Of a stretch of DNA of 64,000 bases, positions 1 to 34,479 are shown piece after piece. The notes below the pieces were generated by a model. It had not been told where the DNA came from. It searched no databases and was given only the letters and a program-made list of their open reading frames with translations. How positions within the stretch are numbered: position 1 is the first letter of the stretch; every line of letters starts with the position of its first letter. A program made the position numbers and the translations under genes. The stretch is from NCBI GenBank assembly GCA_965218295.1, contig CBDCKN010000009.1, positions 480,001 to 544,000 on the forward strand, in the 5' to 3' direction. Source of the DNA: Longimicrobiales bacterium (GTDB lineage Bacteria; Gemmatimonadota; Gemmatimonadetes; Longimicrobiales; Gaopeijiaceae).

Positions 1-1105
1 GTCCAGGGAAAAGTTGCAGGGCTGCTGGGATTGAGCCTCGAGGACGGGACGAACTCATGAAGGCGACCCAGGAGCTAGCCAAGCACGTAGGGGTGAAGCC
101 CGCGTGCGATGCGCTCAGGGTGCCGCGAGCCACGTTCTACCGTCGTCGGAGTGCATCGACCGGGCATCAGCAGCCCCGCCCGACCCCCGCCCGGGCCTTA
201 AGTGAGAGGGAGCGGGACAAGATTTTCGACACCCTGTGTTCGGAGCGGTTCGTGGACCGGTCCCCAGCCGAGGTGGTGGCGACGCTGCTCGACGAGGACG
301 TCTACCTGTGCAGCGAGCGTACGATGTATCGCGTTCTGGCTTCCCAGGTGCCGGTTCAGGAGCGTCGAGCGCAGCGGAGTCATCCCAAATACCAGAAGCC
401 CGAGTTGATGGCGAGGGGCCCGAACCAGGTCTGGTCCTGGGATATCACCCGGCTGCTGGGGCCGAAGAAGTGGAGTTACTTCTACCTCTACGTGATCCTG
501 GACATCTTCAGCCGCTACGTCGTGGGATGGATGGTGGCGGATCGGGAGAACTCTGCCCTGGCCAGCCGGCTGATCCAGCAGAGTTGCTTGAAGCATGGCG
601 TCCAGCCCCACCTCCTGACCCTGCATTCCGATCGAGGGGCTCCGATGACGAGCCAATGCACGGCTCAACTACTCGCCGATCTCGGCGTGACCCGCTCGTT
701 GGGCCGACCCCAGGTCTCGGATGACAATCCGTTCTCCGAGGCTCAGTTCAAGACCTTGAAGTACCATCCCTCGTTTCCCGGCCGGTTCGGGGATCAGGGG
801 CAAGCCAAGACCTTCTGTCGCTCGTTCTTCCGTTGGTATAATGCCGAGCACCGCCATGGCGGCATCTCGATGCTGACCCCCCGAACAGGTCCACTTCGGT
901 CACGCCGATCGGATCATCGCCTGCAGGAAGGCCGTGCTCCGTGAGGCATGGGCCGCTCATCCCGAGCGCTTCGTCTCCGGTGAGCCGAAGCCTAAACCAC
1001 TCCCGGAGGCCGTCTGGATCAATCCTCCCACCCCATCCCTCACTACACAGGAGATTGCTCTCTAATTGATTTCCAAGAGTGTCTCACTGGCGTTGACAGG
1101 TTCCG
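1..1105 (+). mobile_element. IS3-family element, copy 1 (5' end outside window); orfB 57..1065 frameshifted at a C6 run near 877-882
   Basis: rve-type integrase core (WSWDIT, LHSDRG, SEAQFKTLK); right end GTGTCTCACTGGCGTTGACAGGTTCCG as in the other copies. Confidence 0.95.
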
Positions 1106-1549
1106 GCGAGGTACGCCTCTCATTCGTCAGCGCCGAGGTGGCGTGCGTTCGGTACCTCTTGACGAACCTCATGCTGCATGAGCAGGAGGGTTAGTCGTTC
1201 GTCGTCACCGCTTTCGCAACGCCTATTCGGCGGACCCCGCGGGCAGTCACCCTGCCAAAGCTCATCGTTGAGCCCTGTTGCCTCGGCCTGCCCCGTCCTA
1301 TTGTGCCGGCAATCGACCGCTTCGATTGACACGCATGAAGTAGTCACAGAGCAGCGCTTGCTTGAGATCCTGAACGAAGAGCTTCGCCAGTCGCCAGAAT
1401 GCGAAGGTGCAGAGATCGTGGGTGATTTGTGGCGTATGGACAGGAGCGGCTCAACAACCCAAAGATCACGAAGTGAGGAGCGGGGATCGGGAGAGTGAAT
1501 CCGTGCTGCGGAAGCGCGTTTAGCTACCGCTTTTGAAGAGGAGCAAGCC

Positions 1550-3815: not shown

Positions 3816-4109
3816 TCACTTCCCCAACTTGTTGTGCCTCGGCTTGGACCTCTTGATGCTGCGCGCCTCGGCTTCACGCGCCTCAGCGATCGTGCCTTTG
3901 GGGGTGATCTCCACAGTTGTGGCACCCGGAATCGCGTCGGGTCCTCCGGGCAGATGTTCCTTGAGCCGCTCTGCGACACGTCCTCTCTTAGCCACCCCGG
4001 TGTATGTGTGGGTCCCGGCTCGGTTGCGGATCTTGTAGACGACAGGTTTGTCCTGGGCCAGTGATTCGATGCCCGTCTTGCTAAACCGGGCCTTCTTTTT
4101 TCCCGGCAA
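3816..4109 (-). CDS. Small stand-alone GIY-YIG nuclease-family protein
   Basis: PVVYKI...YTGVAKRGRVAERLKEH...EAREAEARSIK..KPRHN fits the GIY-YIG motif order; GGAGG RBS before TTG start. Confidence 0.75.
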   Translation of the reverse strand: MPGKKKARFSKTGIESLAQDKPVVYKIRNRAGTHTYTGVAKRGRVAERLKEHLPGGPDAIPGATTVEITPKGTIAEAREAEARSIKRSKPRHNKLGK

Positions 4110-4145
4110 GATATACCTCCGAGGTAATAGTCATGATCGTCCCTC

Positions 4146-4340
4146 TTACGCCCTGGCCCGATCCAGCAGCGCTTCGATCTCGTCGTCGGTCACGTCGGCA
4201 AGCGGCGTATCCGATCGCACCTCCGCCGTGAACTGCTTCCCCTCCGCCGCGAACGCCAGCACTCCGCGCCGCTCACCCCGTTCGAGCCAGAGCAGCCAGT
4301 GCTTGCCGTCCCTCGGGTCGGTCCAGTCGCGGTGGGTCAT
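4146..4340 (-). CDS. Hypothetical 64-aa protein
   Basis: ATG start, protein-like composition (WTDPRDGKHW...LAF...DDEIEALLDRAR). Confidence 0.6.
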   Translation of the reverse strand: MTHRDWTDPRDGKHWLLWLERGERRGVLAFAAEGKQFTAEVRSDTPLADVTDDEIEALLDRARA

Positions 4341-4479: not shown

Positions 4480-5925
4480 CTACCTCCTGGGCCGCACCTC
4501 CACCTCCAGATCCTGACGCCTATACATGCAGATCCCGTTCACGTCCTCGCAGACGTAGTAGAGGGCGTATCCCGGTATGGTGATCGGGCCGCGGCCGAGC
4601 TCCTGGGGCGCACGGATCTCAGCCTCGATCACGCGGGTCTCCAGTGACACCACCTCGGGAGGGAGCGGATAGCTGGACATCCTGGTCTCGACTTCCCATC
4701 CCTCGGGCGGATCGAGCCAGAGGACCATCTCCTCGGCCTCGTTGTTCCAGTGCGCTTTCGTCCGCTGGATCGGTCGGAACGAGAAATGCAGCCGCGTGAC
4801 GTCCCCGGGAGCGACCCTGGCCGGGACCGCAACGGCCTCGGCTTCAATGAACTGGTCCTCGTCGCGAAGCACGCGACCCAGAGGGTCGGGCTCTGGGGGG
4901 GCGTCCAGGCCGACGACGAAGTCCCTTTGCGGGCTGGCGAACTCGGAGCCACGAGGCTCGACGGTGAGTGGAGCAGGCTCTTCGCCCCGGGCCTGGATCT
5001 CCTCGCGGGCCGTGACGACCCAGTCGTAGAAGGGGTACGGTTTATCTAGCCGCGGGCCATACTGCTGGATGCGTCTGCGCCAAATGTACTGGTTGGGATC
5101 GATCTCGAGCGCGGCGGACCACTCGTCCACGGCCTTCTGGAAGTCGCCTTTGCGCCGACCGTCCGAGTCGTAGCGCATCCGGTGGGCGACGCCCAGGCGG
5201 AAGTGCGCCATGCCGTCCTCCGGCTGCTCGCGCACCACCCACTCGTACGCGTCGACGGCCTGATCCACTCGGCCGGCTCCACCCCACACGGCGATCGCGT
5301 CACCATAGGCCCTCCACGCCTCCGCGCTGCCCTCGGACCGTGCGCGCGCATAGAGGGCAGCCACGTCCGGCGGAGGAGTGGCTGGCGACGGCTCGCCCCG
5401 CACGGAGCCGAAGCTCTCCTCCAGAAAGTCGTCGCTGACGCTGCCGTCCTTCTGCATCGCCGGCAGAACCTTCCGAATCACGCCGCTCTCGTCGATCGCA
5501 AGGGAGATCGGCACGTAGGGCGCCCCCAGCAGATCGTACGAGTCGACCAAAATGGGCCACCCCATCTGCTTCCACTGCATGAAGAGGAGGGCCCGGTCGG
5601 GGTGCTGCTCCTGGATGATCCCGACCATCTGTACGCTGCCGACGTCCTGGAGGCTCTCGGTCGCGTTGTGCCACCCGGGCACGTGTCGCCTACAGCCTGC
5701 TCACCAGGATGCAAAGATGTGTAGGATGACCTTCTGACCGCGGAAGTCGGCGATAGACGCGGGCCGCCCGTCGTCGAGGGACGGGAGCGACAGAGTGGGG
5801 AACGGTCTGCCCACCTTGAAGCCGTGCGACGGCATGGAGCTCTGCGCACGCGCTTCGCTCGGAACAGCGATGGCGATCAGCAGGAGTAGTGTGACGGCGA
5901 ATTGTCGGGCGGATGTGTTCATCAT
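4480..5925 (-). CDS. Probable selenoprotein (~481 aa): signal peptide + TlpA/AhpC-TSA thioredoxin fold (FASW-U-AGC) + TPR + C-terminal DsbD-N-like domain
   Basis: ORFs 5701..5925 and 4480..5682 are in one frame joined by TGA at 5701-5703, at the first Cys of WCxxC; hairpin follows. Confidence 0.85.
5668..5682 (-). promoter_or_regulatory. Candidate bacterial SECIS apical hairpin (GTGCC-CGGGT-GGCAC)
   Basis: Loop starts 23 nt after UGA; G at loop position 2. Confidence 0.6.
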
Positions 5926-6000
5926 TCCTCCAACTGCACGGCAGCCCTCTCCAGTTTAGCTCGCAGTCGGTCGCACGTCGAGCAAGGGAGCCGAGGTCGT

Positions 6001-6041
6001 TAGGCTGGAGCGCCCTCCTGGCTTGGAGGGCCATTATGGGC
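6001..6041. repeat. 41-bp imperfect direct repeat, copy 2
   Basis: Matches 3681..3721. Confidence 0.7.
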
Positions 6042-6249
6042 GTGCTCTCCTCTGAACCCAATACACCACAACAGCATAACGCCTTGCTCAAGCAGGGTGC
6101 CGGACTCGAAAAGGGTCTTTAAAATGCCTATCCCTTATCGAAAACCTAGCTCGCCGGTTCTACGAACCATCCCTAAAGCGAGTAGCCGGTAGGTTTGCGT
6201 GGCGTTCGCTGACGGTGTCACACTCCCGCCTCGTGCTACTCGACCAGAT

Positions 6250-6774
6250 TCAGGATGTCTTCGTGAGCCGGCTGACGATCTCCTCGATGACGGCGTCCGC
6301 CCGTTCTTTGATCTCGGCCGGAGTCCGATCCTGAATCGGGTGTGGGACGAAAACCGCGTCCAGGTCGGGCCGCCCCAGGCGGCTCGCCTGCACCCTGGCA
6401 GCTGTGCGAAACTCCTCCGTGGCGAGGGGCACGGAGGGGATGCCTTCCGCTTCGAGTCGAACGCTGTCGTGCAAACTGCACGTTGTGCAGGAGCCTCAGT
6501 CGGCCAGCGCTTCGATCACCCCATCCACGAAAGCGAGCCTCTCCCGCAGGGCTCTAGGAGCCGGCTTCGTGTAGGTCGGCTTGACCTCGCGAACGATTCG
6601 GGAAACGCCGTAGCGCTCCTTGAGAATCTCCTCCAGCCGATCCAAGAACTCCTTCCCTCGGGGCTTGCTGATGTCGAGCAGGGCGAGGGTCTTGCCCTCG
6701 AGGCTATCGAGCCGGGGCGCAGGAGGCAGCCGGTCTTGGGAGCGTTCATCGAGAGGGTTCACCAACGTGGACAT
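6250..6774 (-). CDS. UGSC-family (seleno)protein, ~174 aa
   Basis: AAGGAG RBS and ATG at 6774; in-frame TGA 6496-6498 gives EALAD-U-GSCTTCSLHD...LEAEGIP...HPI, the UGSC signature. Confidence 0.9.
6468..6482 (-). promoter_or_regulatory. Candidate SECIS hairpin (CGTGCA-GTT-TGCACG)
   Basis: Loop starts 19 nt after UGA and begins with G. Confidence 0.55.
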
Positions 6775-6806
6775 GGAATCTCCTTGTTGCATGTTCTTTT
6801 GCGTCC

Positions 6807-8459
6807 TTACCACTCTATTCGTGTATTTACCAACACCGGATATGTCACGATCTGAGAGCCTCCGGCGCCCGCCAGCCAACCCCCCAGGACTGCGGAAAAT
6901 TTTCCGGCCGTGCCGCCCGCCACGATGATCCGAATCTGCGACGGGTCTTCGAACTTCCGATAGTGGGGCTCACCGTCGATCAGGACTTCCTCGTAGGTAT
7001 CGCGGAGCTGGGTACCCTCCGTGCCCTCGTGGTCGAACGCCCGGAGGGGAACGCCGGTCTGCTCGAAGAGGAAGTCGCGCGCGTCGCTCTTGGAGAATCC
7101 GTCGGAGCTCAAGGTCGCGGCGTGCTCAGGGCACAACACCACCAGCGCGTCGATCCGCCCGCACCGCCTCCAGCTCCAGATCATGGAGAGCGTGGCGCCA
7201 ATCGTGCGGAGCACTCCGGCCCCGGTTCGGGCCGTGTGCTCGCTCACCTCCGTGAGCCCGCCGGCGGCGAACAGCGTGACGGTGCTCTGGTTCTGACCGA
7301 AGCCGAGCTCTACGTGGAGAGGCTCCCAGGGACTCTCCTCGTGATTCTCGGCCACGCAGTACGAGAAGCGTCCCGGACTTCCCAGCGCCGACATGTCGAT
7401 CTCACCCGGGAGAGCACCCCCCAGGTTCGCCATCACGAGTTGGAGCGCCCGGCCCACCGAGCTGTTGGCCCGAGCCACGTTTCCGAACACCCCCGCCCCG
7501 CTCGCGAAGCCCAAGCGCGTGGTGGCCGGCCCGCTCAGGATGATCAACGGAGTGGCCGAGTGGGTCGTCGCCTGCACCCCGTGCAGGTTGAAGCGCTCGT
7601 CGCAAGCGGCCCTGACCACAGGGATCAGAACCTCCATGTACTCCGGCTTGCAGCCCGCCATCACCGCGTTGGCGGCAATCTTCTCGACCGTGGCGGGCCC
7701 GTAGCAGGGCGGGACCAGTCCCACCACACGATCCGGTGAGTGTGGGATCGCCGCCAAGAAGGCGTCGACCCGTTCCGCCGTAGGTGGGACCACGGGAACG
7801 AATGGCGAGAAGCCGGCGCTCATGCAATACTCGTACGGATCTTCGTCCTCGGCCAACGTGAGGCGTGAGGCCCGCGGCGCGCGATCGGGAAGCGGATCGA
7901 TTGGCTCGGGCGGCGCCTCGTCAGACGCTTCGACAGCCCCGACGGCCACCGCCGACTCGAGGTGGCGGGACGCACAGCCGGGCTTCATCATGGGAGCCCC
8001 ATCGTCGAGGTCGGCCACTGTCCGCACCGGAAGTCCGAGGTCAGAGAGCATTCTCTCCGCGGCCGAGTTGAGGTCCCCCTTGTGGAAGCCCACCTCGGAG
8101 AACTCGATCTGTCCCCCGTGGCCCACGAGAAATAGCGCCGGGACGCTGGGCGGATTGAAGCTGCGAGACGCATCCAGATCGACGTCCAAGAGCACCGGGA
8201 AGCTCACGTCATAGGCCTCCACCAGCTCTCGTGTTTCAGGGCCACCGTCCTGCGAGACCGCCACGACCCGATGGCCATTGGGGCCGAGCGCCTCGGCCAG
8301 GCGTTTCAGGTACGGGACCGTAAGGCGGCAGGTGGGACAGTCGGTCTCGATGAATGAGAGGAGGATGGGACCCTCGGTCGTCTCCTCCCCGAGTCGCCAA
8401 TCGGTTCCGTCCAGCCGGGCGAGTGAGAAGTCCGGTGCCGGATCTCCCGGAGCAAGCAT
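6807..8459 (-). CDS. AhpC/TSA (TlpA-like, CPTC) domain fused to the large UGSC-associated domain
   Basis: N-terminal PGDPAPDFSL...DCPTC; C-terminal PVVPPTAERV...ATVEKIAANAVMAGCKPEY...QATT...RANSSVGRA; directly upstream of the UGSC gene. Confidence 0.8.
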   Translation of the reverse strand: MLAPGDPAPDFSLARLDGTDWRLGEETTEGPILLSFIETDCPTCRLTVPYLKRLAEALGPNGHRVVAVSQDGGPETRELVEAYDVSFPVLLDVDLDASRSFNPPSVPALFLVGHGGQIEFSEVGFHKGDLNSAAERMLSDLGLPVRTVADLDDGAPMMKPGCASRHLESAVAVGAVEASDEAPPEPIDPLPDRAPRASRLTLAEDEDPYEYCMSAGFSPFVPVVPPTAERVDAFLAAIPHSPDRVVGLVPPCYGPATVEKIAANAVMAGCKPEYMEVLIPVVRAACDERFNLHGVQATTHSATPLIILSGPATTRLGFASGAGVFGNVARANSSVGRALQLVMANLGGALPGEIDMSALGSPGRFSYCVAENHEESPWEPLHVELGFGQNQSTVTLFAAGGLTEVSEHTARTGAGVLRTIGATLSMIWSWRRCGRIDALVVLCPEHAATLSSDGFSKSDARDFLFEQTGVPLRAFDHEGTEGTQLRDTYEEVLIDGEPHYRKFEDPSQIRIIVAGGTAGKFSAVLGGWLAGAGGSQIVTYPVLVNTRIEW

Positions 8460-8614
8460 GGTCAGGTCACAGGATGGAGGGTGAGTACGCCGCCGAACGC
8501 CGCTTCGGGCTTGCGAGCCCAGTATCCTATGGGCTGAGGGTGAGGCGCAAGCCGCCGCGGGAGCAGACCCTGGAGCAGGCCAGTGGAAGCTACTGGTGGA
8601 GCGAGCCTGCCCGG

Positions 8615-8914
8615 TTATGAGATCCGCGCTGTTATGCTGGCCACCGACGGCGCTCCGTCTGCCCGGCAGGCCATCGCTGCCGTGCTGACGTTCTCTCCGG
8701 TCACGTCCTCACCGTTCACCAAGACGGTGGGTGACCCGAAGCGCCGGAAGTCAGCCGGTGTTGACTCCGCCATGAGGTCCCACTCTGACCAAGTCAGGAC
8801 CTGACCGGCCCCCTCAATTGCCTCTCTCAGGTTGTCTCGTGCTTGCGCCGTGTTGGGGCATCCGTCGAAGTAGACCAACTCGATTCGTGGCATCTTCATC
8901 TCTCTATTCTCCAT
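8615..8914 (-). CDS. Small thioredoxin-fold protein of the type found beside merB/merT
   Basis: IELVYFDGCPN...FGSPTVLVNGED...ACR. Confidence 0.75.
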   Translation of the reverse strand: MENREMKMPRIELVYFDGCPNTAQARDNLREAIEGAGQVLTWSEWDLMAESTPADFRRFGSPTVLVNGEDVTGENVSTAAMACRADGAPSVASITARIS

Positions 8915-8928
8915 GGGCCAAGAGGTGG

Positions 8929-9306
8929 CTACTCACCTTCGTCGGCCCGCTCTGTCGCACTGAAGGCAGTCATCTGTTCGAGTTCGCTCACGATCTCCGC
9001 GACGGTGGTCACCGTCGTGTCGAACGTCACGAAACCCTCTGCCGCCTCGTACGAGAAACGCGCCTCCTGCACACCCTCGACTCGCTCCACGGCCAACCCG
9101 GCCGCTGTGGCGCAGCCGTCTCAGGTCATGCCGGTGACATCTAGCGCCACCGTTCGAAGCGTTCCCTCCACGTCGGCCATGTCGGCAGGTACATCCCCCT
9201 GCAAGGTCGCTCCGTGGTCCATCGCCGCGTCTTCGTGTCCGGGTATCTGGAGCAGAATGCCGCCCCCGATCACCACGGCCACAGCCGACCATTGTTTCCA
9301 ACCCAT
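8929..9306 (-). CDS. merP: MerP-like heavy-metal-associated (HMA) protein with probable selenocysteine (GMT-U-DGC), 125 aa
   Basis: Frame stays open past TGA 9121-9123 to TAG 8929: VALDVTGMT-U-DGCATAAGLAVERVEGVQEARFSYEAAEGFVTFD; N-terminal hydrophobic segment; follows merT. Confidence 0.85.
9090..9104 (-). promoter_or_regulatory. Candidate SECIS hairpin (CGGCC-GGGTT-GGCCG)
   Basis: Loop starts 21 nt after UGA and begins with G. Confidence 0.6.
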
Positions 9307-9322
9307 CGTTTGGAATCTCCTG

Positions 9323-9667
9323 TTATAGGATGAGCGTCTGCCAACTAGGGAACGTGGCGAAGACGACGGCCACGACGGTGGCGGTCCAAAGCATGACCAT
9401 CATGCGCCGTCTGACCGCAGGGTCGGCGCACGGTTTGCCCGGAACACATGCCGCCTTCTCCTCTCGGTCGAGGAGCCAGAATCCCAGGACGAGGAAAAAC
9501 GCCGTGGCTGCCAGGAAGTACGGTCGGTACGGCTCAAATGCCGAGAGCCCGGCTCCCGACACGCCCAAGCTCACCGCCACGACCGGCCCGGCACAGCAGA
9601 GGGCCGAGCTAGCGGCTGCGAAGACCCCGCCCACGCCTGGCAATGTCGCCTTCATCGAATCTCTCAC
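9323..9667 (-). CDS. merT: Mercuric ion transporter MerT
   Basis: ASSALCCAGP in TM1, FEPYRPYF, cytoplasmic ACVPGKPC pair, three hydrophobic segments. Confidence 0.9.
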   Translation of the reverse strand: MRDSMKATLPGVGGVFAAASSALCCAGPVVAVSLGVSGAGLSAFEPYRPYFLAATAFFLVLGFWLLDREEKAACVPGKPCADPAVRRRMMVMLWTATVVAVVFATFPSWQTLIL

Positions 9668-9679
9668 GGCGTCCTCCGA

Positions 9680-10398
9680 CTACTCGACCACGTCGCCGAG
9701 GGTGTGAGCCGTGACGTGCTCCGTTAGGCTCGAATTCGCCAACGCAGCACCCCAATTCCTGGCGTTCAATCGTTTGGCAAGGTCGGCGGCTTCATCCAGC
9801 CTAAGGAGGAACGTGCCTTCGTGCTTGGTCGCCTTAGGCTTCACCCGATTCCCGCGACTCAAAGAAGAAGACGAAATGGCAGAAGCTCGCCATCACGTTG
9901 TCCGCTGACTTGAACCCCTCGGCGTCAGGCGCGACAAAAGACACCACGGTGGTCTCGGGCTCCTGAGACCGAACACCTTCGGGCGCGACCGTGGGGTCGG
10001 ATGGTACCCCCGGTCTGGGGGTCCCGACTTTCGACCCGGGCTTGCTCTCCGAGGATCTCAGGGATGAAAAGGCTGTCCCAGGCGCACCACGTCCACAGAG
10101 TGCGCCCGTCGAGATCGAGCTTGTGAGACATCGGTGCGGCAGCGAGACCTCCGAAACCCAACACGTGGCCCTCTTCATCCGGGTAGACGAAGGATCGGAT
10201 GAAATCCCTGCCTAGCAGCTCAGCACTCGCGACCGGCACATCCAGGGCTGCGGGAAGTTGCGTGGCGGATACCGGACTGCCTTTAGCTAGTTCGCGGTAA
10301 AGTGTGACGGCGGCACGTTGCTCGTCTTCCGCAAACGTCGGAAGCACTGCTTCGAGTGCTTGCCAATACTGATCGATGTCGGGTGTCTCGTTCATCAT
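9680..10398 (-). pseudogene. merB: Organomercurial lyase MerB, two frameshifts (near 10000 and 9835)
   Basis: LWTWCAWDSLFIP (catalytic Cys/Asp), then ASFCHFVFFF and FLLRLDEAADLAKRLN in shifted frames. Confidence 0.85.
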
Positions 10399-10473
10399 CA
10401 GTCTACCTCCCTTTTGTCATCGTCCTCGAGCACCTAATGGCCTGATCCGTCGTGGACCAGCCTCGACCAATAC

Positions 10474-10505
10474 AAGCTAAACCCTGTACCACAGTACGGA
10501 GTCAA
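10474..10505 (-). promoter_or_regulatory. MerR-type promoter/operator for merB-merT-merP
   Basis: TTGACT-CCGTACTGTGGTACAGGGTT-TAGCTT: GTAC-N4-GTAC dyad in a 20-bp spacer, close to the Tn501/Tn21 PmerT sequence TTGACTCCGTAC. Confidence 0.85.
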
Positions 10506-10549
10506 GGGCTGGTGGTGGTGGAGTCGGACATCAGCCGGGGAGAACTGCG

Positions 10550-12549
10550 TCAGCGGTCTGGCCAGCCCGAGTGATCGAGTTCCTCAAGGATCGGGCACGC
10601 ACCCGTCGGTTCCCGCGCCTCACATGCTTCGACCAGACGCTGGAGTGCGGTCTCAATCCGCCGGAGTGCCTCTATCTTACCGGCGACCTGCTCTAGTTTC
10701 TCTCGCGCTTGCGCCTCGACTGGACCGCACGCGGCGACCTCATTCACGCGCAGGTTGAGCAGTTCCGAAATCTCCCGGAGCGCGAAGCCGAGTCCCTGCG
10801 CCCGCCGGATGAACTTCACGCGGTCCACAGCGTCACCGGGGTACTGACGGTACCCCGACAGTGTCCGTGGTGGCTCTGGTAGCAGACCCTTGCGCTCGTA
10901 GAAGCGGACAGTCTCGACTCCGATTCCAGCCGCTTGCCCTCTCTGCCAACTTAGGTGAGACACGGAACGAGTAAAGAATTAGAGTAGGGCGAAGGCAGAG
11001 AAACCGAGGATGCTGGGACACCGAGAGAGAATGGAAGAGAATGGAATCGCCCCACTAACCTGGGAGGGTAAGCGAAGCGCGGCAGCTGCTCCGGACGCGG
11101 AGGTGGTAGATAAGCCGACGCGCCGACGGTTTAGTCCGTCGTACAAGCTGCGGGTCGTCGAAGAAGCGGACCGGTGCACGGAGCCGGGAGAAGGTAGGGC
11201 GACTCCTGCGACGGGAGGGCTTGTACTCGTCGCACCTGACGACATGGCGCAAGGCGGTGCGGAGTGGGTCGCTGAGAGTGCTGTCGAAGAGACGAGGTCG
11301 AAAGCCGAGCGAACGGAATCCGCTGGAGGGGAAAGTGCGCAAGCTGGAGCGCGAGAACACTCGCCTGGAGAAGGAACTCGAGAAGGCGCGCCTGATCATC
11401 GACGTCCAGGGAAAAGTTGCAGGGCTGCTGGGATTGAGCCTCGAGGACGGGACGAACTCGTGAAGGCGGCCGAGGCGCTGGCCACGTACGTAGGGGTAAA
11501 GCCCGCGTGCGATGCGCTCAGGGTCGCCCGAGCCACGTTCTATCGTCGTCGGAGGCCATCGACCGGGCATCAGCAGCCCCGCCCGACCCCAGCCCGGGCC
11601 TTGAGCGAGAAGGAACGAGACAAGGTCTTCGACACGCTGTGTTCGGAGCGATTCGTGGACCGGTCCCCGGCCGAGGTTGTGGCGACCCTGCTCGACGAAG
11701 ACGTCTACCTGTGCAGCGAACGTACGATGTATCGCGTTCTGGCCTCCCAAGTGCCAGTTCGAGAGCGCCGAGCGCAGCGGAGTCATCCCGAATACCAGAA
11801 ACCCGAGTTGATGGCGACGGGCCCGGGCCAGGTCTGGTCCTGGGATATCACACGGCTGCTGGGGCCGAGGAAGTGGAGCTACTTCTACCTCTACGTCATC
11901 ATGGACATCTTCAGCCGCTACATCGTGGGATGGATGGTGGCGGATCGGGAGAGCTCGGCCTTGGCCGGGCGCCTGATCCAGCAGAGTTGCCTGAAGCATG
12001 GCGTCCAGCCCCAGGTCCTGACCTTGCACTCGGATCGAGGAGCTCCGATGACGAGCCAATGCACGGCTCAGCTCCTCGCCGATCTCGGGGTGACCCGCTC
12101 GCTGAGCCGACCTCAGGTGTCGGATGACAATCCGTTCTCCGAGGCCCAGTTCAAGACCTTGAAGTACCATCCCTCGTTTCCTGGACGGTTCGAGGATCAG
12201 GGCCAGGCCAAAATGTTCTGTCGCTCGTTCTTCCGCTGGTACAATGCCGAGCACCGCCATGGCGGCATCTCGATGCTGACCCCCGAACAGGTCCACTTCG
12301 GTCACGCCGATCAGGTCATCGCCGGCAGGGAGGCCGTGCTACGCGAGGCCTGGGCCGCTCATCCCGACCGCTTCGTCTCCGGTGAGCCGAAGCCCAAACC
12401 GCTCCCGGAGGCCGTCTGGATCAATCCTCCAACCCCCTCCCTCACGACACAGGAGATTGCTCTCTAATTAATTCCCAAGAGTGTCTCACTGGCGTTGACA
12501 GGCTCCGTTGGGCCAAGGCACCGATTGTCAGCGTGGAGGTCTCAGACAT
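10550..12549 (-). pseudogene. merR: Hg(II)-responsive regulator MerR, split by an IS3-family element after codon 14
   Basis: 12549..12508 = MSETSTLTIGALAQ, joining AAGIGVETVRFYERKGLL...C...C...CPIL; three Cys; 3-bp duplication TTG at both IS junctions. Confidence 0.93.
10937..12507 (+). mobile_element. IS3-family element, copy 2 (divergent isoform), 3-bp TSD TTG
   Basis: Ends CCCTCTCTGCCAACTTAGGTGAGACAC / GTGTCTCACTGGCGTTGACAGGCTCCG; orfA/orfB appear fused (11010..12467) by an indel in orfA. Confidence 0.95.
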
Positions 12550-12555
12550 GACCAC

Positions 12556-12586
12556 ACACTAACCCCGTAGTCCGGTACGGGGTCAA
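12556..12586 (-). promoter_or_regulatory. Second MerR-type promoter/operator immediately upstream of merR (probably leaderless)
   Basis: TTGACC-CCGTACCGGACTACGGGGT-TAGTGT: 19-bp spacer with dyad ACCCCGTA..TACGGGGT; ATG 6 nt after the -10. Confidence 0.8.
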
Positions 12587-12678: not shown

Positions 12679-12936
12679 TCAACGACGATATGGGGGTGGC
12701 GGCCCGCGGTCGTCGTCGTCCCCACCAGCGCCAATTGCGTCTTTCAGACCCTTACTGGCGCGGAAGCCGGGGGTCTTAGAAGCCGGAATGTGAATCGTAG
12801 CGCCTGTACGAGGATTCCTGCCCATACGGGTCTTGCGGTGCTTCGCCTCGAACGTACCAAAGCCTGTGATCTGAACGCGACTGTCCATCCTCAGGGTTCC
12901 GGCGATGATGCCGTCAGAGCCGAAGAGTGCGTCCAT
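12679..12936 (-). pseudogene. HU/IHF DNA-binding protein lacking its N-terminal helices
   Basis: VQITGFGTFEAKHRKTRMGRNPRTG...PGFRASKGLKDAI; no MNK-type N-terminus, abuts the permease stop. Confidence 0.8.
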
Positions 12937-25861: not shown

Positions 25862-27637
25862 CCCTCTCTGCCAACTTACGTGAGACACAGAGCAGCTAAG
25901 GAATTAGAGTAGGGCGAAGGCAGAGAAACCGAGGATGCTGAGACACCGTGAGAGAATGAAAGAGAATGGAATAGCCCCACCAACCTGGGACGGTAAGCGA
26001 AGCGCGGCAGCTCCTGCGGACTCGGAGGTGGTAGATAGGCCGCTGCGCCGGCGGTTCGCTCCGTCGTACAAGCTGCGGATCGTCGAAGAAGCGGACCGGT
26101 GCACGGAGCCCGGAGAGGTTGGCCGACTCCTACGGCGGGAGGGCTTGTACTCGTCGCACCTGACGACATGGCGCAAGGCGGCGCATAGCGGGTCCCTGAA
26201 AGCGCTGTCGAAGAAACGAGGCCGTAAGCGCGAGCGCAATCCGCTGGAGGAGAAGGTGCGCAAGCTGGAGCGCGAGAACACTCGCCTCGAGAAGGAGCTC
26301 CAGAAGGCGCACTTGATCATCGACGTCCAGGGAAAAGTTGCAGGGCTGCTGGGATTGAGCCTCGAGGACGGGACGAACTCATGAAGGCGACCCAGGAGCT
26401 AGCCAAGCACGTAGGGGTGAAGCCCGCGTGCGATGCGCTCAGGGTGCCGCGAGCCACGTTCTACCGTCGTCGGAGTGCATCGACCGGGCATCAGCAGCCC
26501 CGCCCGACCCCCGCCCGGGCCTTAAGTGAGAGGGAGCGGGACAAGATTTTCGACACCCTGTGTTCGGAGCGGTTCGTGGACCGGTCCCCAGCCGAGGTGG
26601 TGGCGACGCTGCTCGACGAGGACGTCTACCTGTGCAGCGAGCGTACGATGTATCGCGTTCTGGCTTCCCAGGTGCCGGTTCAGGAGCGTCGAGCGCAGCG
26701 GAGTCATCCCAAATACCAGAAGCCCGAGTTGATGGCGAGGGGCCCGAACCAGGTCTGGTCCTGGGATATCACCCGGCTGCTGGGGCCGAAGAAGTGGAGT
26801 TACTTCTACCTCTACGTGATCCTGGACATCTTCAGCCGCTACGTCGTGGGATGGATGGTGGCGGATCGGGAGAACTCTGCCCTGGCCAGCCGGCTGATCC
26901 AGCAGAGTTGCTTGAAGCATGGCGTCCAGCCCCACCTCCTGACCCTGCATTCCGATCGAGGGGCTCCGATGACGAGCCAATGCACGGCTCAACTACTCGC
27001 CGATCTCGGCGTGACCCGCTCGTTGGGCCGACCCCAGGTCTCGGATGACAATCCGTTCTCCGAGGCTCAGTTCAAGACCTTGAAGTACCATCCCTCGTTT
27101 CCCGGCCGGTTCGGGGATCAGGGGCAAGCCAAGACCTTCTGTCGCTCGTTCTTCCGTTGGTATAATGCCGAGCACCGCCATGGCGGCATCTCGATGCTGA
27201 CCCCCCGAACAGGTCCACTTCGGTCACGCCGATCGGATCATCGCCTGCAGGAAGGCCGTGCTCCGTGAGGCATGGGCCGCTCATCCCGAGCGCTTCGTCT
27301 CCGGTGAGCCGAAGCCTAAACCACTCCCGGAGGCCGTCTGGATCAATCCTCCCACCCCATCCCTCACTACACAGGAGATTGCTCTCTAATTGATTTCCAA
27401 GAGTGTCTCACTGGCGTTGACAGGTTCCGGGTCACGCCGATCGGATCATCGCCTGCAGGAAGGCCGTGCTCCGTGAGGCATGGGCCGCTCATCCCGAGCG
27501 CTTCGTCTCCGGTGAGCCGAAGCCTAAACCACTCCCGGAGGCCGTCTGGATCAATCCTCCCACCCCATCCCTCACTACACAGGAGATTGCTCTCTAATTG
27601 ATTTCCAAGAGTGTCTCACTGGCGTTGACAGGTTCCG
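25862..27637 (+). mobile_element. IS3-family element, copy 3 (orfA 25935..26384, orfB frameshifted) with duplicated right end
   Basis: Same termini as copies 1 and 4; inserted in the IS256 transposase at GAGATGAG|CGCC. Confidence 0.95.
27222..27637 (+). repeat. 208-bp tandem duplication of the IS3 right end
   Basis: 27222..27429 repeated as 27430..27637. Confidence 0.9.
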
Positions 27638-32417: not shown

Positions 32418-32590
32418 CGAGCTCGCAGCGCACGGTGCCGGGGAGCATGTTCCCCGGTGAGGTGAGGTGCTCGAATGTCGTCAACTCAGCTGTGCCCCTC
32501 GCTGCAGTTGGCCGGAACCCTCTCTGCCAACTTACGTGAGACACGGAGCAGCTAAGGAATTAGAGTAGGGCGAAGGCAGAGAAACCGAGG

Positions 32591-33040
32591 ATGCTGAGAC
32601 ACCGAGAGAGAATGAAAGAGAATGGAATAGCCCCACCAACCTGGGACGGTAAGCGAAGCGCGGCAGCTCCTGCGGACTCGGAGGTGGTAGATAGGCCGCT
32701 GCGCCGGCGGTTCGCTCCGTCGTACAAGCTGCGGATCGTCGAAGAAGCGGACCGGTGCACGGAGCCCGGAGAGGTTGGCCGACTCCTACGGCGGGAGGGC
32801 TTGTACTCGTCGCACCTGACGACATGGCGCAAGGCGGCGCATAGCGGGTCCCTGAAAGCGCTGTCGAAGAAACGAGGCCGTAAGCGCGAGCGCAATCCGC
32901 TGGAGGAGAAGGTGCGCAAGCTGGAGCGCGAGAACACTCGCCTCGAGAAGGAGCTCCAGAAGGCGCACTTGATCATCGACGTCCAGGGAAAAGTTGCAGG
33001 GCTGCTGGGATTGAGCCTCGAGGACGGGACGAACTCATGA
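32591..33040 (+). CDS. IS3 transposase OrfA
   Basis: RRRFAPSYKLRIVEEAD...LLRREGLYSSHLTTWRK HTH plus coiled coil. Confidence 0.9.
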   Translation: MLRHRERMKENGIAPPTWDGKRSAAAPADSEVVDRPLRRRFAPSYKLRIVEEADRCTEPGEVGRLLRREGLYSSHLTTWRKAAHSGSLKALSKKRGRKRERNPLEEKVRKLERENTRLEKELQKAHLIIDVQGKVAGLLGLSLEDGTNS

Positions 33041-34044
33041 AGGCGACCCAGGAGCTAGCCAAGCACGTAGGGGTGAAGCCCGCGTGCGATGCGCTCAGGG
33101 TGCCGCGAGCCACGTTCTACCGTCGTCGGAGTGCATCGACCGGGCATCAGCAGCCCCGCCCGACCCCCGCCCGGGCCTTAAGCGAGAAGGAACGAGACAA
33201 GGTCTTCGACACGCTGTGTTCGGAGCGGTTCGTGGACCGGTCCCCAGCCGAGGTGGTGGCGACGCTGCTCGACGAGGACGTCTACCTGTGCAGCGAGCGT
33301 ACGATGTATCGCGTTCTGGCTTCCCAGGTGCCGGTTCAGGAGCGTCGAGCGCAGCGGAGTCATCCCAAATACCAGAAGCCCGAGTTGATGGCGAGGGGCC
33401 CGAACCAGGTCTGGTCCTGGGATATCACCCGGCTGCTGGGGCCGAAGAAGTGGAGTTACTTCTACCTCTACGTGATCCTGGACATCTTCAGCCGCTACGT
33501 CGTGGGATGGATGGTGGCGGATCGGGAGAACTCTGCCCTGGCCAGCCGGCTGATCCAGCAGAGTTGCTTGAAGCATGGCGTCCAGCCCCACCTCCTGACC
33601 CTGCATTCCGATCGAGGGGCTCCGATGACGAGCCAATGCACGGCTCAACTACTCGCCGATCTCGGCGTGACCCGCTCGTTGGGCCGACCCCAGGTCTCGG
33701 ATGACAATCCGTTCTCCGAGGCTCAGTTCAAGACCTTGAAGTACCATCCCTCGTTTCCCGGCCGGTTCGGGGATCAGGGGCAAGCCAAGACCTTCTGTCG
33801 CTCGTTCTTCCGTTGGTATAATGCCGAGCACCGCCATGGCGGCATCTCGATGCTGACCCCCGAACAGGTCCACTTCGGTCACGCCGATCGGATCATCGCC
33901 TGCAGGAAGGCCGTGCTCCGTGAGGCATGGGCCGCTCATCCCGAGCGCTTCGTCTCCGGTGAGCCGAAGCCTAAACCACTCCCGGAGGCCGTCTGGATCA
34001 ATCCTCCCACCCCATCCCTCACTACACAGGAGATTGCTCTCTAA
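33037..34044 (+). CDS. IS3 transposase OrfB (DDE integrase core)
   Basis: WSWDIT, HSDRG, SEAQFKTLK, WYNAEHRH; ATGA overlap with orfA. Confidence 0.93.
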   Translation: MKATQELAKHVGVKPACDALRVPRATFYRRRSASTGHQQPRPTPARALSEKERDKVFDTLCSERFVDRSPAEVVATLLDEDVYLCSERTMYRVLASQVPVQERRAQRSHPKYQKPELMARGPNQVWSWDITRLLGPKKWSYFYLYVILDIFSRYVVGWMVADRENSALASRLIQQSCLKHGVQPHLLTLHSDRGAPMTSQCTAQLLADLGVTRSLGRPQVSDDNPFSEAQFKTLKYHPSFPGRFGDQGQAKTFCRSFFRWYNAEHRHGGISMLTPEQVHFGHADRIIACRKAVLREAWAAHPERFVSGEPKPKPLPEAVWINPPTPSLTTQEIAL

Positions 34045-34479
34045 TTGATTTCCAAGAGTGTCTCACTGGCGTTGACAGGTTCCGGAAGAGAAGCCTGCCA
34101 CGAGTATGTCACCGACGGGCGTGACGGCGATTCCCTCTACCGTACCGAACCCGTCGCCGAGAGCTACCGAGCCACTCCAGTCCCGAGCAATCCGAAGAAC
34201 ATTACACATGCGTACAATCTGGTAGCTCAGATTGCGAAAGTCTGTGCGCACGCTTGATCGTCAAGCGCTGGCACGAGAATCCCTGGTTGACCGGTCTGAT
34301 CCCCCCCCTCACGTTATCGCGACCCGTGAAAGGGCTTTTGTTTTGGCTATCCCTAAGACCACTTGTTCAGGGAGGGCAGAATGGACTCGACTGAGGCGAA
34401 GTTCGCACGGCACTTGGAAGTGCTACCGCAGGGCGTGTGTTCAGCTCAGCGGAACGCAGATCCGATAAGAATCTTCGTC

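Follow-up and report, generated by a model that had tools for sequence, protein, structure and literature searches.

A likely decayed mercury cassette encoding a MerP-like selenoprotein, next to UGSC and TlpA-type selenoprotein genes in a Longimicrobiales genome

Genes of the locus and their selenocysteine codons

The stretch analysed here (the window, 64,000 nt of Longimicrobiales DNA) contains, at 4480..12586, a locus in which mercury-resistance (mer) genes stand next to genes of the UGSC and TlpA types. The genome to which the window belongs (G000) has 3.57 Mb and is 90.7% complete. Family scans identify eight genes, all on the minus strand and in the same direction, as MerR, MerB, MerT, HMA, DF-like, AhpC/TSA fusion, UGSC and TlpA-TPR, in agreement with the co-oriented genes and identities that an earlier note on this DNA had named; the gaps of 155 bp and 324 bp that it gave are also correct.

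How should the three open reading frames that appear broken at this locus be read? When TGA is translated as selenocysteine (Sec), each of them becomes a full gene: the HMA gene, hereafter merP(U) (125 aa; TGA at 9123-9121, in GMT-U-DGC), the UGSC gene (174 aa; TGA at 6498-6496, in D-U-GSC) and the TlpA-TPR gene (481 aa; TGA at 5703-5701, in W-U-AGC). Contigs of run X1, which is possibly the source sample, span the three codons, where they contain no gap and no differing letter (records 5589-5947, 5918-7671 and 7642-10964), and run X2, from a different study, is identical to the window over 8852-10705 with 0 differences. TGC or TGT was looked for at these positions in the assembled run contigs and none was found, all of them reading TGA. 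A search of the genome for selA, selB, selC and selD recovered a complete Sec machinery, comprising tRNA-Sec, selA, selB and selD; the selD gene (G000:C15:340010-340930) itself carries an in-frame TGA and likely encodes a selenoprotein. Across the 300 genomes of the family that served for all presence counts, the motif TGA is kept in 34 of 39 MerP-like loci and in all full-length matches of TlpA-TPR (16 genomes), and every UGSC match listed has one TGA.

The hairpins that the earlier note had seen downstream of these codons fare differently depending on how they are judged. As single sequences, their energies in the three genes are no better than chance (z -1.65, +0.36 and +0.50), so that their support comes from conservation across relatives. 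The core of the selenocysteine insertion sequence (SECIS) of merP(U) (9089..9105, minus strand) has a 6-bp stem and a 5-nt G-rich loop and lies 18 nt past the start of the UGA; in an alignment of 30 sequences 97.8% of its cells are paired, with changes on both sides in 3 of the 6 pairs, and the stem occurs in the same register at 45 of 83 Sec sites versus 3 of 22 Cys sites. An 18-nt hairpin of TlpA-TPR is invariant in 8 of 8 aligned sequences, and a similar hairpin is present in 5 of 5 folded UGSC sequences by an informal count. Judged by codon and hairpin conservation, the three in-frame TGAs are almost certainly genuine selenocysteine codons, as the earlier note had proposed when it placed them at motif cysteines.

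The mer block in the window and in relatives

The mer block begins with a MerR-type operator/promoter (12556..12586, minus strand; TTGAC, a dyad and a 19-bp spacer) that precedes merR. This gene is divided into a 5′ part of 14 codons (12508..12549, minus strand) and a 3′ part (10550..10933, minus strand) by an IS3-like insertion sequence (IS) (10937..12507, plus strand; 1571 bp; NF033516, E 4.5e-52) flanked by a CAA 3-bp duplication; the two parts are joined in the relative G222 and in run X13, which carries the IS-free joint. The best match of the 3′ part is TIGR02051 (133 bits for this fragment, cut-off 151), with the C-x34-C-x8-C cysteine spacing of the Hg type, and no other close MerR was found in G000, the next match having 31% identity. 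A second operator/promoter (10474..10505, minus strand) lies upstream of merB-merT-merP(U)-DF. The search pattern, modelled on the Tn501 operator, has only two matches genome-wide, with ends at 12586 and 10505, one before merR and one before merB, and the operator with its dyad and long spacer is conserved in the mer loci of relatives. A sigma-70 promoter scan, which excludes spacers of 19-20 bp, gave 0 sites.

The merB gene (9680..10398, minus strand) had been listed as a normal gene in the earlier note, which did recognise the IS-split merR. Compared with the intact orthologue of G222, it is a pseudogene, with a +1 frameshift at ~9996 and another, accompanied by an in-frame stop, at ~9838; the first open reading frame keeps the WCAWD cysteine and has lost that of SFCH, the second catalytic-type cysteine. 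Both frameshifts are present with the same letters in X1 and X2 contigs, so that assembly errors are unlikely, and we reject long-read errors as their cause. The merT gene (9323..9667, minus strand) is intact, with a CC pair in the first helix and a second Cys pair (PF02411, 76.3 bits, cut-off 32.9; NF010314, 68.6 bits, cut-off 150). The merP(U) product (8929..9306, minus strand) has an N-terminal hydrophobic segment and the loop GMT-U-DG-C, UxxC instead of CxxC; it exceeds the cut-off of PF00403 (38.9 bits versus 24.8) and falls below that of TIGR02052 (39.1 versus 92.55). A search of G000 for merA found none above the TIGR02053 cut-off (best 376 bits versus 454), the three top matches being other flavoproteins.

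The last gene of the block (8615..8914, minus strand), formerly labelled only as a small thioredoxin-fold gene, can be refined by sequence to a Cys-form DF-like protein that belongs to the mer block. NF049942 is its best and only NCBIfam match (46.6 bits, E 2.7e-12, below the cut-off of 70), two cysteines are invariant in the alignment, and the predicted structure (pLDDT 90) has a thioredoxin-like fold for which Foldseek returned weak thioredoxin-fold matches, none at E <= 0.001. Because the IS element splits merR and merB is frameshifted twice, this mer block is likely a decayed copy of a MerA-less mercury cassette, probably uninducible in G000 and unable to cleave organomercury. The cassette of G222 carries another lesion, merT and most of merP being lost while merR is uninterrupted.

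What does the cassette look like where it is better preserved? A MerP-like gene was found in 35 of the 300 family genomes, at 39 loci, and what is conserved there is the unit merR-merT-merP(U), in which the loop reads GMT-U-x-x-C and the SECIS covaries. Apart from the 34 loci with TGA at the first loop position, there are one with TGA at a contig edge, one with Cys, two in which the motif is deleted and one unrelated ATPase domain. A selA gene was detected in 32 of these 35 genomes; the sole Cys MerP within the clade belongs to G104, a 99% complete genome in which selA was not found, and nests within the Sec clade of a weakly supported tree (3 of 30 branches starred) that left out the near-identical loci L057, L071, L073 and L074 and the incomplete L079-L081, L084 and L085.

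Beyond the family, a strict DNA pattern for Sec-HMA recovered at least 80 loci in GTDB, overlapping with the family loci: 32 are titled Gemmatimonadota or Longimicrobiales and 48 belong to other groups, for example Acidobacteriota, Planctomycetota, Armatimonadota and Anaerolineales, and the closest matches in the named GTDB scan carry a Gemmatimonadota title. Within the fetched flanks of the 80 loci, MerT is present at 49 and MerA at 14, and no mer gene at 29. Other arrangements among the Sec-HMA loci are tandem repeats, with two Sec-HMA units in Planctomycetota loci and three in one of Poribacteria, and a P-type ATPase with UxxC in its first HMA domain (these among L116, L140, L153 and L166). 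A further variant of the cassette, L194 in G240, has a close merR (85%) and DF (79%), after which come a different HMA protein, what may be an outer-membrane protein, and merT.

MerA and DF alternate behind this unit. MerA above the TIGR02053 cut-off occurs in 13 of the 35 genomes with a MerP-like gene, each time no more than ~2 kb downstream of it and in 12 cases behind the Sec form. Counted per locus (n=39), DF is present at 19 and MerA at 13, both at 0 and neither at 7, and of the 17 genomes that carry a DF cassette 16 lack a MerA above the cut-off; related genomes are not independent of each other, and no p-value is attached to these counts. Where Sec-MerP is best conserved, its partner is MerA (12 loci) or DF in the place of MerA, not UGSC. 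On the MerP tree the MerA and DF labels require 5-7 changes; a single origin of the cassette types remains compatible with so weakly supported a tree. One MerA behind Sec-MerP (L030:7391-9193, in G001) has, replacing the HMA domain, an N-terminal Cys-rich extension that we take to be YHS/TRASH-like.

DF is also found fused to mer proteins. A word-indexed search for longer DF fusions returned none, and a HMMER search recovered them: among the 45 longer DF-bearing proteins from its best 150 matches, 26 have a mer-type domain (MerC 18, MerT 3, MerB 2, MerR 2, HMA 1), 14 no Pfam match and 5 other domains. Given the topology of MerC, the N-terminal fusion of DF to MerC and MerT suggests that DF lies on the cytoplasmic side. 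A glutathione-reductase-like flavoprotein without the C-terminal CC accompanies DF in some cassettes; a MerR-DF-reductase trio occurs on Cryobacterium and Iamia plasmids, and plasmid homologues of the reductase adjoin merF, merB or merA. Five further plasmid DF regions were viewed, three of them arsenic/metal clusters and two unrelated. G000 has a second DF-like gene (C16:1313-1606), on a contig whose first 4.5 kb carry no mer gene.

Relation of the mer genes to the UGSC and TlpA-TPR genes

Downstream of the mer block, the UGSC selenoprotein gene (6250..6774, minus strand; NF041046, 146.9 bits, cut-off 125; PF24696, 165.7 bits, cut-off 25) follows its partner gene (6807..8459, minus strand), which encodes an AhpC/TSA-like N-terminal domain (CPTC, PF00578) and a domain without a name. 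The partner adjoins UGSC in 12 of 12 fetched UGSC loci, and the pair is likely a separate cytoplasmic thioredoxin-driven selenoenzyme. A UGSC model folded without an alignment was discarded (pLDDT 39). A second copy of the partner's domain lacks the thioredoxin head (G000:C13:26082-27044), and no UGSC gene was detected elsewhere in G000. The last gene (4480..5925, minus strand) encodes an exported TlpA-like selenoprotein with a TPR region and a C-terminal domain with an invariant C-x6-C, for which no match was found among solved structures or Pfam families and which may resemble the N-terminal domain of DsbD. The protein scores 67.3 bits against NF041054, the ResA-like WAxxUGC family (cut-off 300), its motif being W-U-AGC (UxxC), and is likely a separate periplasmic disulfide reductase. 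For the UGSC pair as well as for TlpA-TPR, a dN/dS of 0.16-0.20 indicates purifying selection. Between UGSC and TlpA-TPR there is an approximately 55-bp repeat at 6079-6134, with 8 further copies in the genome, and a candidate terminator-like hairpin at 6147..6169 (minus strand), from a scan that found 4 terminators versus 4.0 expected by chance and with a fold energy no better than that of shuffled sequences.

The earlier note had proposed that all these genes form one selenium-based system for mercury capture or repair, and had warned that gaps of this size might equally mean a coincidental linkage. The warning is the part that the comparisons favour. UGSC is present in 70, a MerP-like gene in 35 and TlpA-TPR in 16 of the 300 genomes; MerP-like and UGSC occur together in 6, where chance would give 8.2 (Fisher p 0.40), and are adjacent in none of these: 763 kb separate them in G001 and ~55 kb in G222, and each of the remaining four genomes has them on separate contigs. 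TlpA-TPR is never adjacent to MerP-like or UGSC in its 16 genomes, none of the 12 fetched UGSC loci contains a mer gene or TlpA-TPR, and UGSC is present at 0 of 41 MerP loci of relatives and 0 of 80 GTDB Sec-HMA loci; in the genomes sampled, the mer and UGSC blocks were never neighbours, which is an outcome that the earlier note had named as refuting its proposal. The MerR-type dyad is absent from 12 of 12 UGSC loci, and no MerR operator was found at UGSC or TlpA-TPR in G000.

The blocks also differ in their closest relatives. The UGSC pair has 84-89% identity to copies of genus g10 versus 38-48% to that of G001, which is of the same genus as G000 and whose own UGSC pair is missing from the syntenic place in G000; the window UGSC was acquired horizontally and came to lie beside the mer genes. 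TlpA-TPR has 91-92% identity to same-genus copies. The junction between the mer and UGSC blocks can be placed at 8563..8607 by homology breakpoints: similarity of the mer block to G222 stops at 8608 and similarity to the region upstream of UGSC in G222 stops at 8562. At this junction the X2 contig departs from the window at 8564, and X1 and X3 contigs run across it.

With a probability of roughly two in three (about 0.68), we consider that three independently inherited blocks met in an IS-rich genome, and that the mer block is a decayed, MerA-less Sec-MerP/MerT/DF mercury cassette. Several observations weigh against it. With regard to DF, no more than 33 candidates per genome were scored for MerA and many loci end at contig edges; the exclusion of MerA and DF holds per cassette only, since a DF-like gene lies elsewhere in 9 of the 13 genomes with MerA; DF-like genes are common (103 of 300 genomes), with homologues that also belong to arsenic clusters or to unrelated neighbourhoods; the reductase is rare (4 of 19 DF loci) and was looked for in G000 and not found; and the dN/dS of DF versus G222 is 0.89, which fits decay, in one short pair of 90 codons. 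With regard to the independence of the blocks, both have copies in G222 (87% and 89% nt) ~55 kb apart on one contig, which makes a shared mobile history possible; the terminator scan found none between DF and the UGSC partner, so that read-through is possible; TlpA-TPR shares its genome with MerP-like in 7 of 16 cases versus 1.9 expected, a count uncorrected for kinship and Sec machinery; and at 6 GTDB loci of one lineage Sec-HMA forms a fusion with another kind of TlpA-like domain. These fusions, with a WCxPC TlpA-like domain (L131, L132, L137, L151, L156 and L158, near-identical loci), are mostly titled Blastocatellia/Acidobacteria and mostly lie near merT- and merR-like genes.

The alternative that retains most credit, though still an improbable one, is a joint arrival of the mer and UGSC blocks: a g10-like donor would have supplied both on a single mobile stretch, and IS activity would since have moved them closer together or apart, with no shared function. 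Their similar divergence from G222 (87-89% nt; dS 0.10-0.30), their proximity there and the presence of the same IS3 family near each block in that genome speak for such an arrival, but it is seen in one relative only, the orientation differs, the interval of G222 matches this part of the window only in IS copies and a short ABC-permease stretch, and no close MerP-like match turned up in other g10 genomes that carry the UGSC pair. As a history, it is compatible with independent blocks.

Less probable still is that the Sec-MerP/MerT/DF cassette without MerA serves, in place of mercury, some different soft metal or metalloid (Cu, Ag, Au, As or Se). The HMA matches include CopZ and CopA domains, the arsenic clusters with DF homologues point the same way, one family cassette lies near an ArsR and an arsenite-methyltransferase-like gene (names as read from the sequence), and 29 of the 80 GTDB loci lack a mer gene in the fetched flank. 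Against this stand the Hg-type cysteine spacing of MerR and its operators, merB inside the cassette, the 12 loci where a true MerA comes immediately after Sec-MerP, and the predominance of MerC among the DF fusions.

That the mer genes, UGSC with its partner and TlpA-TPR work as one selenium-based capture or repair system replacing MerA we regard as very unlikely. Co-orientation, the lack of merA in G000, the undetected terminator between DF and the partner, the ~55 kb distance in G222, the 7 of 16 genomes shared by TlpA-TPR and MerP-like and the Sec-HMA-TlpA fusions of one other lineage would fit it; the negative adjacency (0 of 6), co-occurrence at the level of chance, the 0 of 12 UGSC loci with mer genes, the 0 of 121 Sec-HMA/MerP loci with UGSC, the missing operators, the different closest relatives and the broken regulator and lyase do not. 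What survives of the earlier proposal is the Sec recoding of all three genes, with Sec in an Hg-binding MerP-like protein, together with the lack of merA; the membership of UGSC, its partner and TlpA-TPR does not. Finally, nonsense mutations or assembly errors as the origin of the three TGAs can be practically dismissed, since the IS-rich genome, the broken merR and merB nearby and the non-significant single-sequence hairpins are outweighed by identical codons in independent contigs, conservation of TGA over many genera and phyla, purifying selection (dN/dS 0.16-0.20) and a Cys version where selA is missing.

The surroundings contain further traces of mobility. The IS3-like element has 45 near-full-length copies in G000, four of them in or touching the window (1-1107, 10937-12507, 25862-27430 and 32511-34085), and its family is also present in G222. 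Upstream of merR there is an N-terminally truncated HU/IHF-like gene (12679-12936), and downstream of TlpA-TPR a small GIY-YIG-like gene with a 64-aa open reading frame (3816-4340), both of which look like island debris. Elsewhere in the genome, an array of 17 tRNAs occupies ~2.3 kb (G000:C9:278187-280522) near another MerR-family gene at C9:275747.

Possible mechanism and known systems

While the gene content, lesions, operators, Sec conservation and MerA-or-DF alternation come from sequence, the steps of the following model are drawn by analogy with mer operons. In the intact cassette, Hg-bound MerR would activate the operator before merB and merT. The HMA domain, tethered to the membrane and likely on its periplasmic side, would bind Hg(II) through its U-x-x-C loop, whose selenol would favour the capture of trace Hg, and would hand it to the cysteine pairs of MerT for import. 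In a MerA-type cassette, MerA would then reduce Hg(II) to Hg(0). In a DF-type cassette, the two invariant cysteines of DF would likely receive Hg(II) from MerT and MerB, and DF would then either retain it or pass it to the thiol pool; in some relatives the glutathione-reductase-like (MerK-like) flavoprotein of the same cassette could serve DF. We propose tentatively, and with clear doubt, that DF is a core mer component standing in for MerA in about half of the family's cassettes, as a cytoplasmic two-cysteine Hg(II) acceptor that would either sequester the metal or act as a 'split MerA' with a MerK-like reductase devoid of the C-terminal cysteine pair, with uptake by Sec-MerP in uncultured bacteria of many phyla.

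Why might such cassettes have gone unnoticed? Annotation ends Sec-MerP at its UGA, so that mer surveys would miss it. The literature searched holds no description of Sec-MerP in mer operons or of DF as a mer component; Haft and Tolstoy 2025, Petrus 2015, the BSepDB data and paper supplements may bear on this. Haft and Gwadz (bioRxiv 10.1101/2022.07.06.499078) state that they found no selenoprotein involved in mercury resistance, a design that they regard as a liability; the Sec-MerP located between merT and a true merA under MerR operators in 12 loci contrasts with this statement. Christakis et al. report 906 genomes with MerB and no MerA, the Hg(II) acceptor being left open in the accessible portion of that paper (PMC8261052). 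DF would be a named, small and testable candidate for this role, and, if true, the model would give a genetic answer to how cells bearing MerB and MerT manage without MerA and would place selenium in mercury resistance itself. Because the window copy is broken, relatives are the better test material. What remains from this locus, as far as sequence comparison goes, would be a variant of the mer system that is well supported comparatively and is seen here in a broken state.

Compared with the Tn21/Tn501-type mer operon (merR, merT, merP, merA and an optional merB), the cassette shares the Hg-type MerR spacing, dyad operators with a long spacer, MerT, an exported HMA protein and MerB, and, at 12 family loci, a true MerA after Sec-MerP. 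It differs in that the first cysteine of the metal loop is Sec, the HMA protein, hydrophobic at its N-terminus, stays under the TIGR02052 cut-off, merR is co-directional and has an operator of its own, DF is present and merA is not, and merR and merB are broken. MerK and glutathione-reductase genes of mer operons are noted in the part available of PMC11227200, which cites Petrus 2015; the reductase of 4 DF cassettes is likewise glutathione-reductase-like, is absent from the window, was not found in G000 and may correspond to MerK.

Sec-containing HMA and MerT-like proteins have been catalogued computationally, as the accessible parts of PMC9312934 and PMC13188914 indicate. NF041115, a metal-binding (seleno)protein family that the latter, in the part available, lists as a 'putative mercuric reductase' with UxxU, is the best NCBIfam match of MerP(U) and has in common with it the HMA fold and Sec in the metal loop, whereas MerP(U) reaches 63 bits (cut-off 95), has UxxC and lies inside MerR-controlled merT operons with MerA or DF. 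NF045683, the MerT/CopZ fusion-like heavy metal transport selenoprotein ('putative mercuric transport protein', PF02411), also brings selenium into a MerT/HMA transport pair, whereas in the window MerT and HMA are separate genes with 54.2 and 30.3 bits (cut-off 375) and Sec lies in HMA; 4 of 5 other Sec-HMA proteins tested also fall below the cut-offs of these two families. NF049942 corresponds to 'hypothetical protein DF' of deep-Sep in the portion of PMC13188914 available to us, and the window DF, a small thioredoxin fold as well, differs in being a Cys form below the cut-off. The UGSC protein exceeds the cut-offs of both of its families and has the usual thioredoxin-fused partner, so that it adds nothing new beyond its landing beside mer genes.

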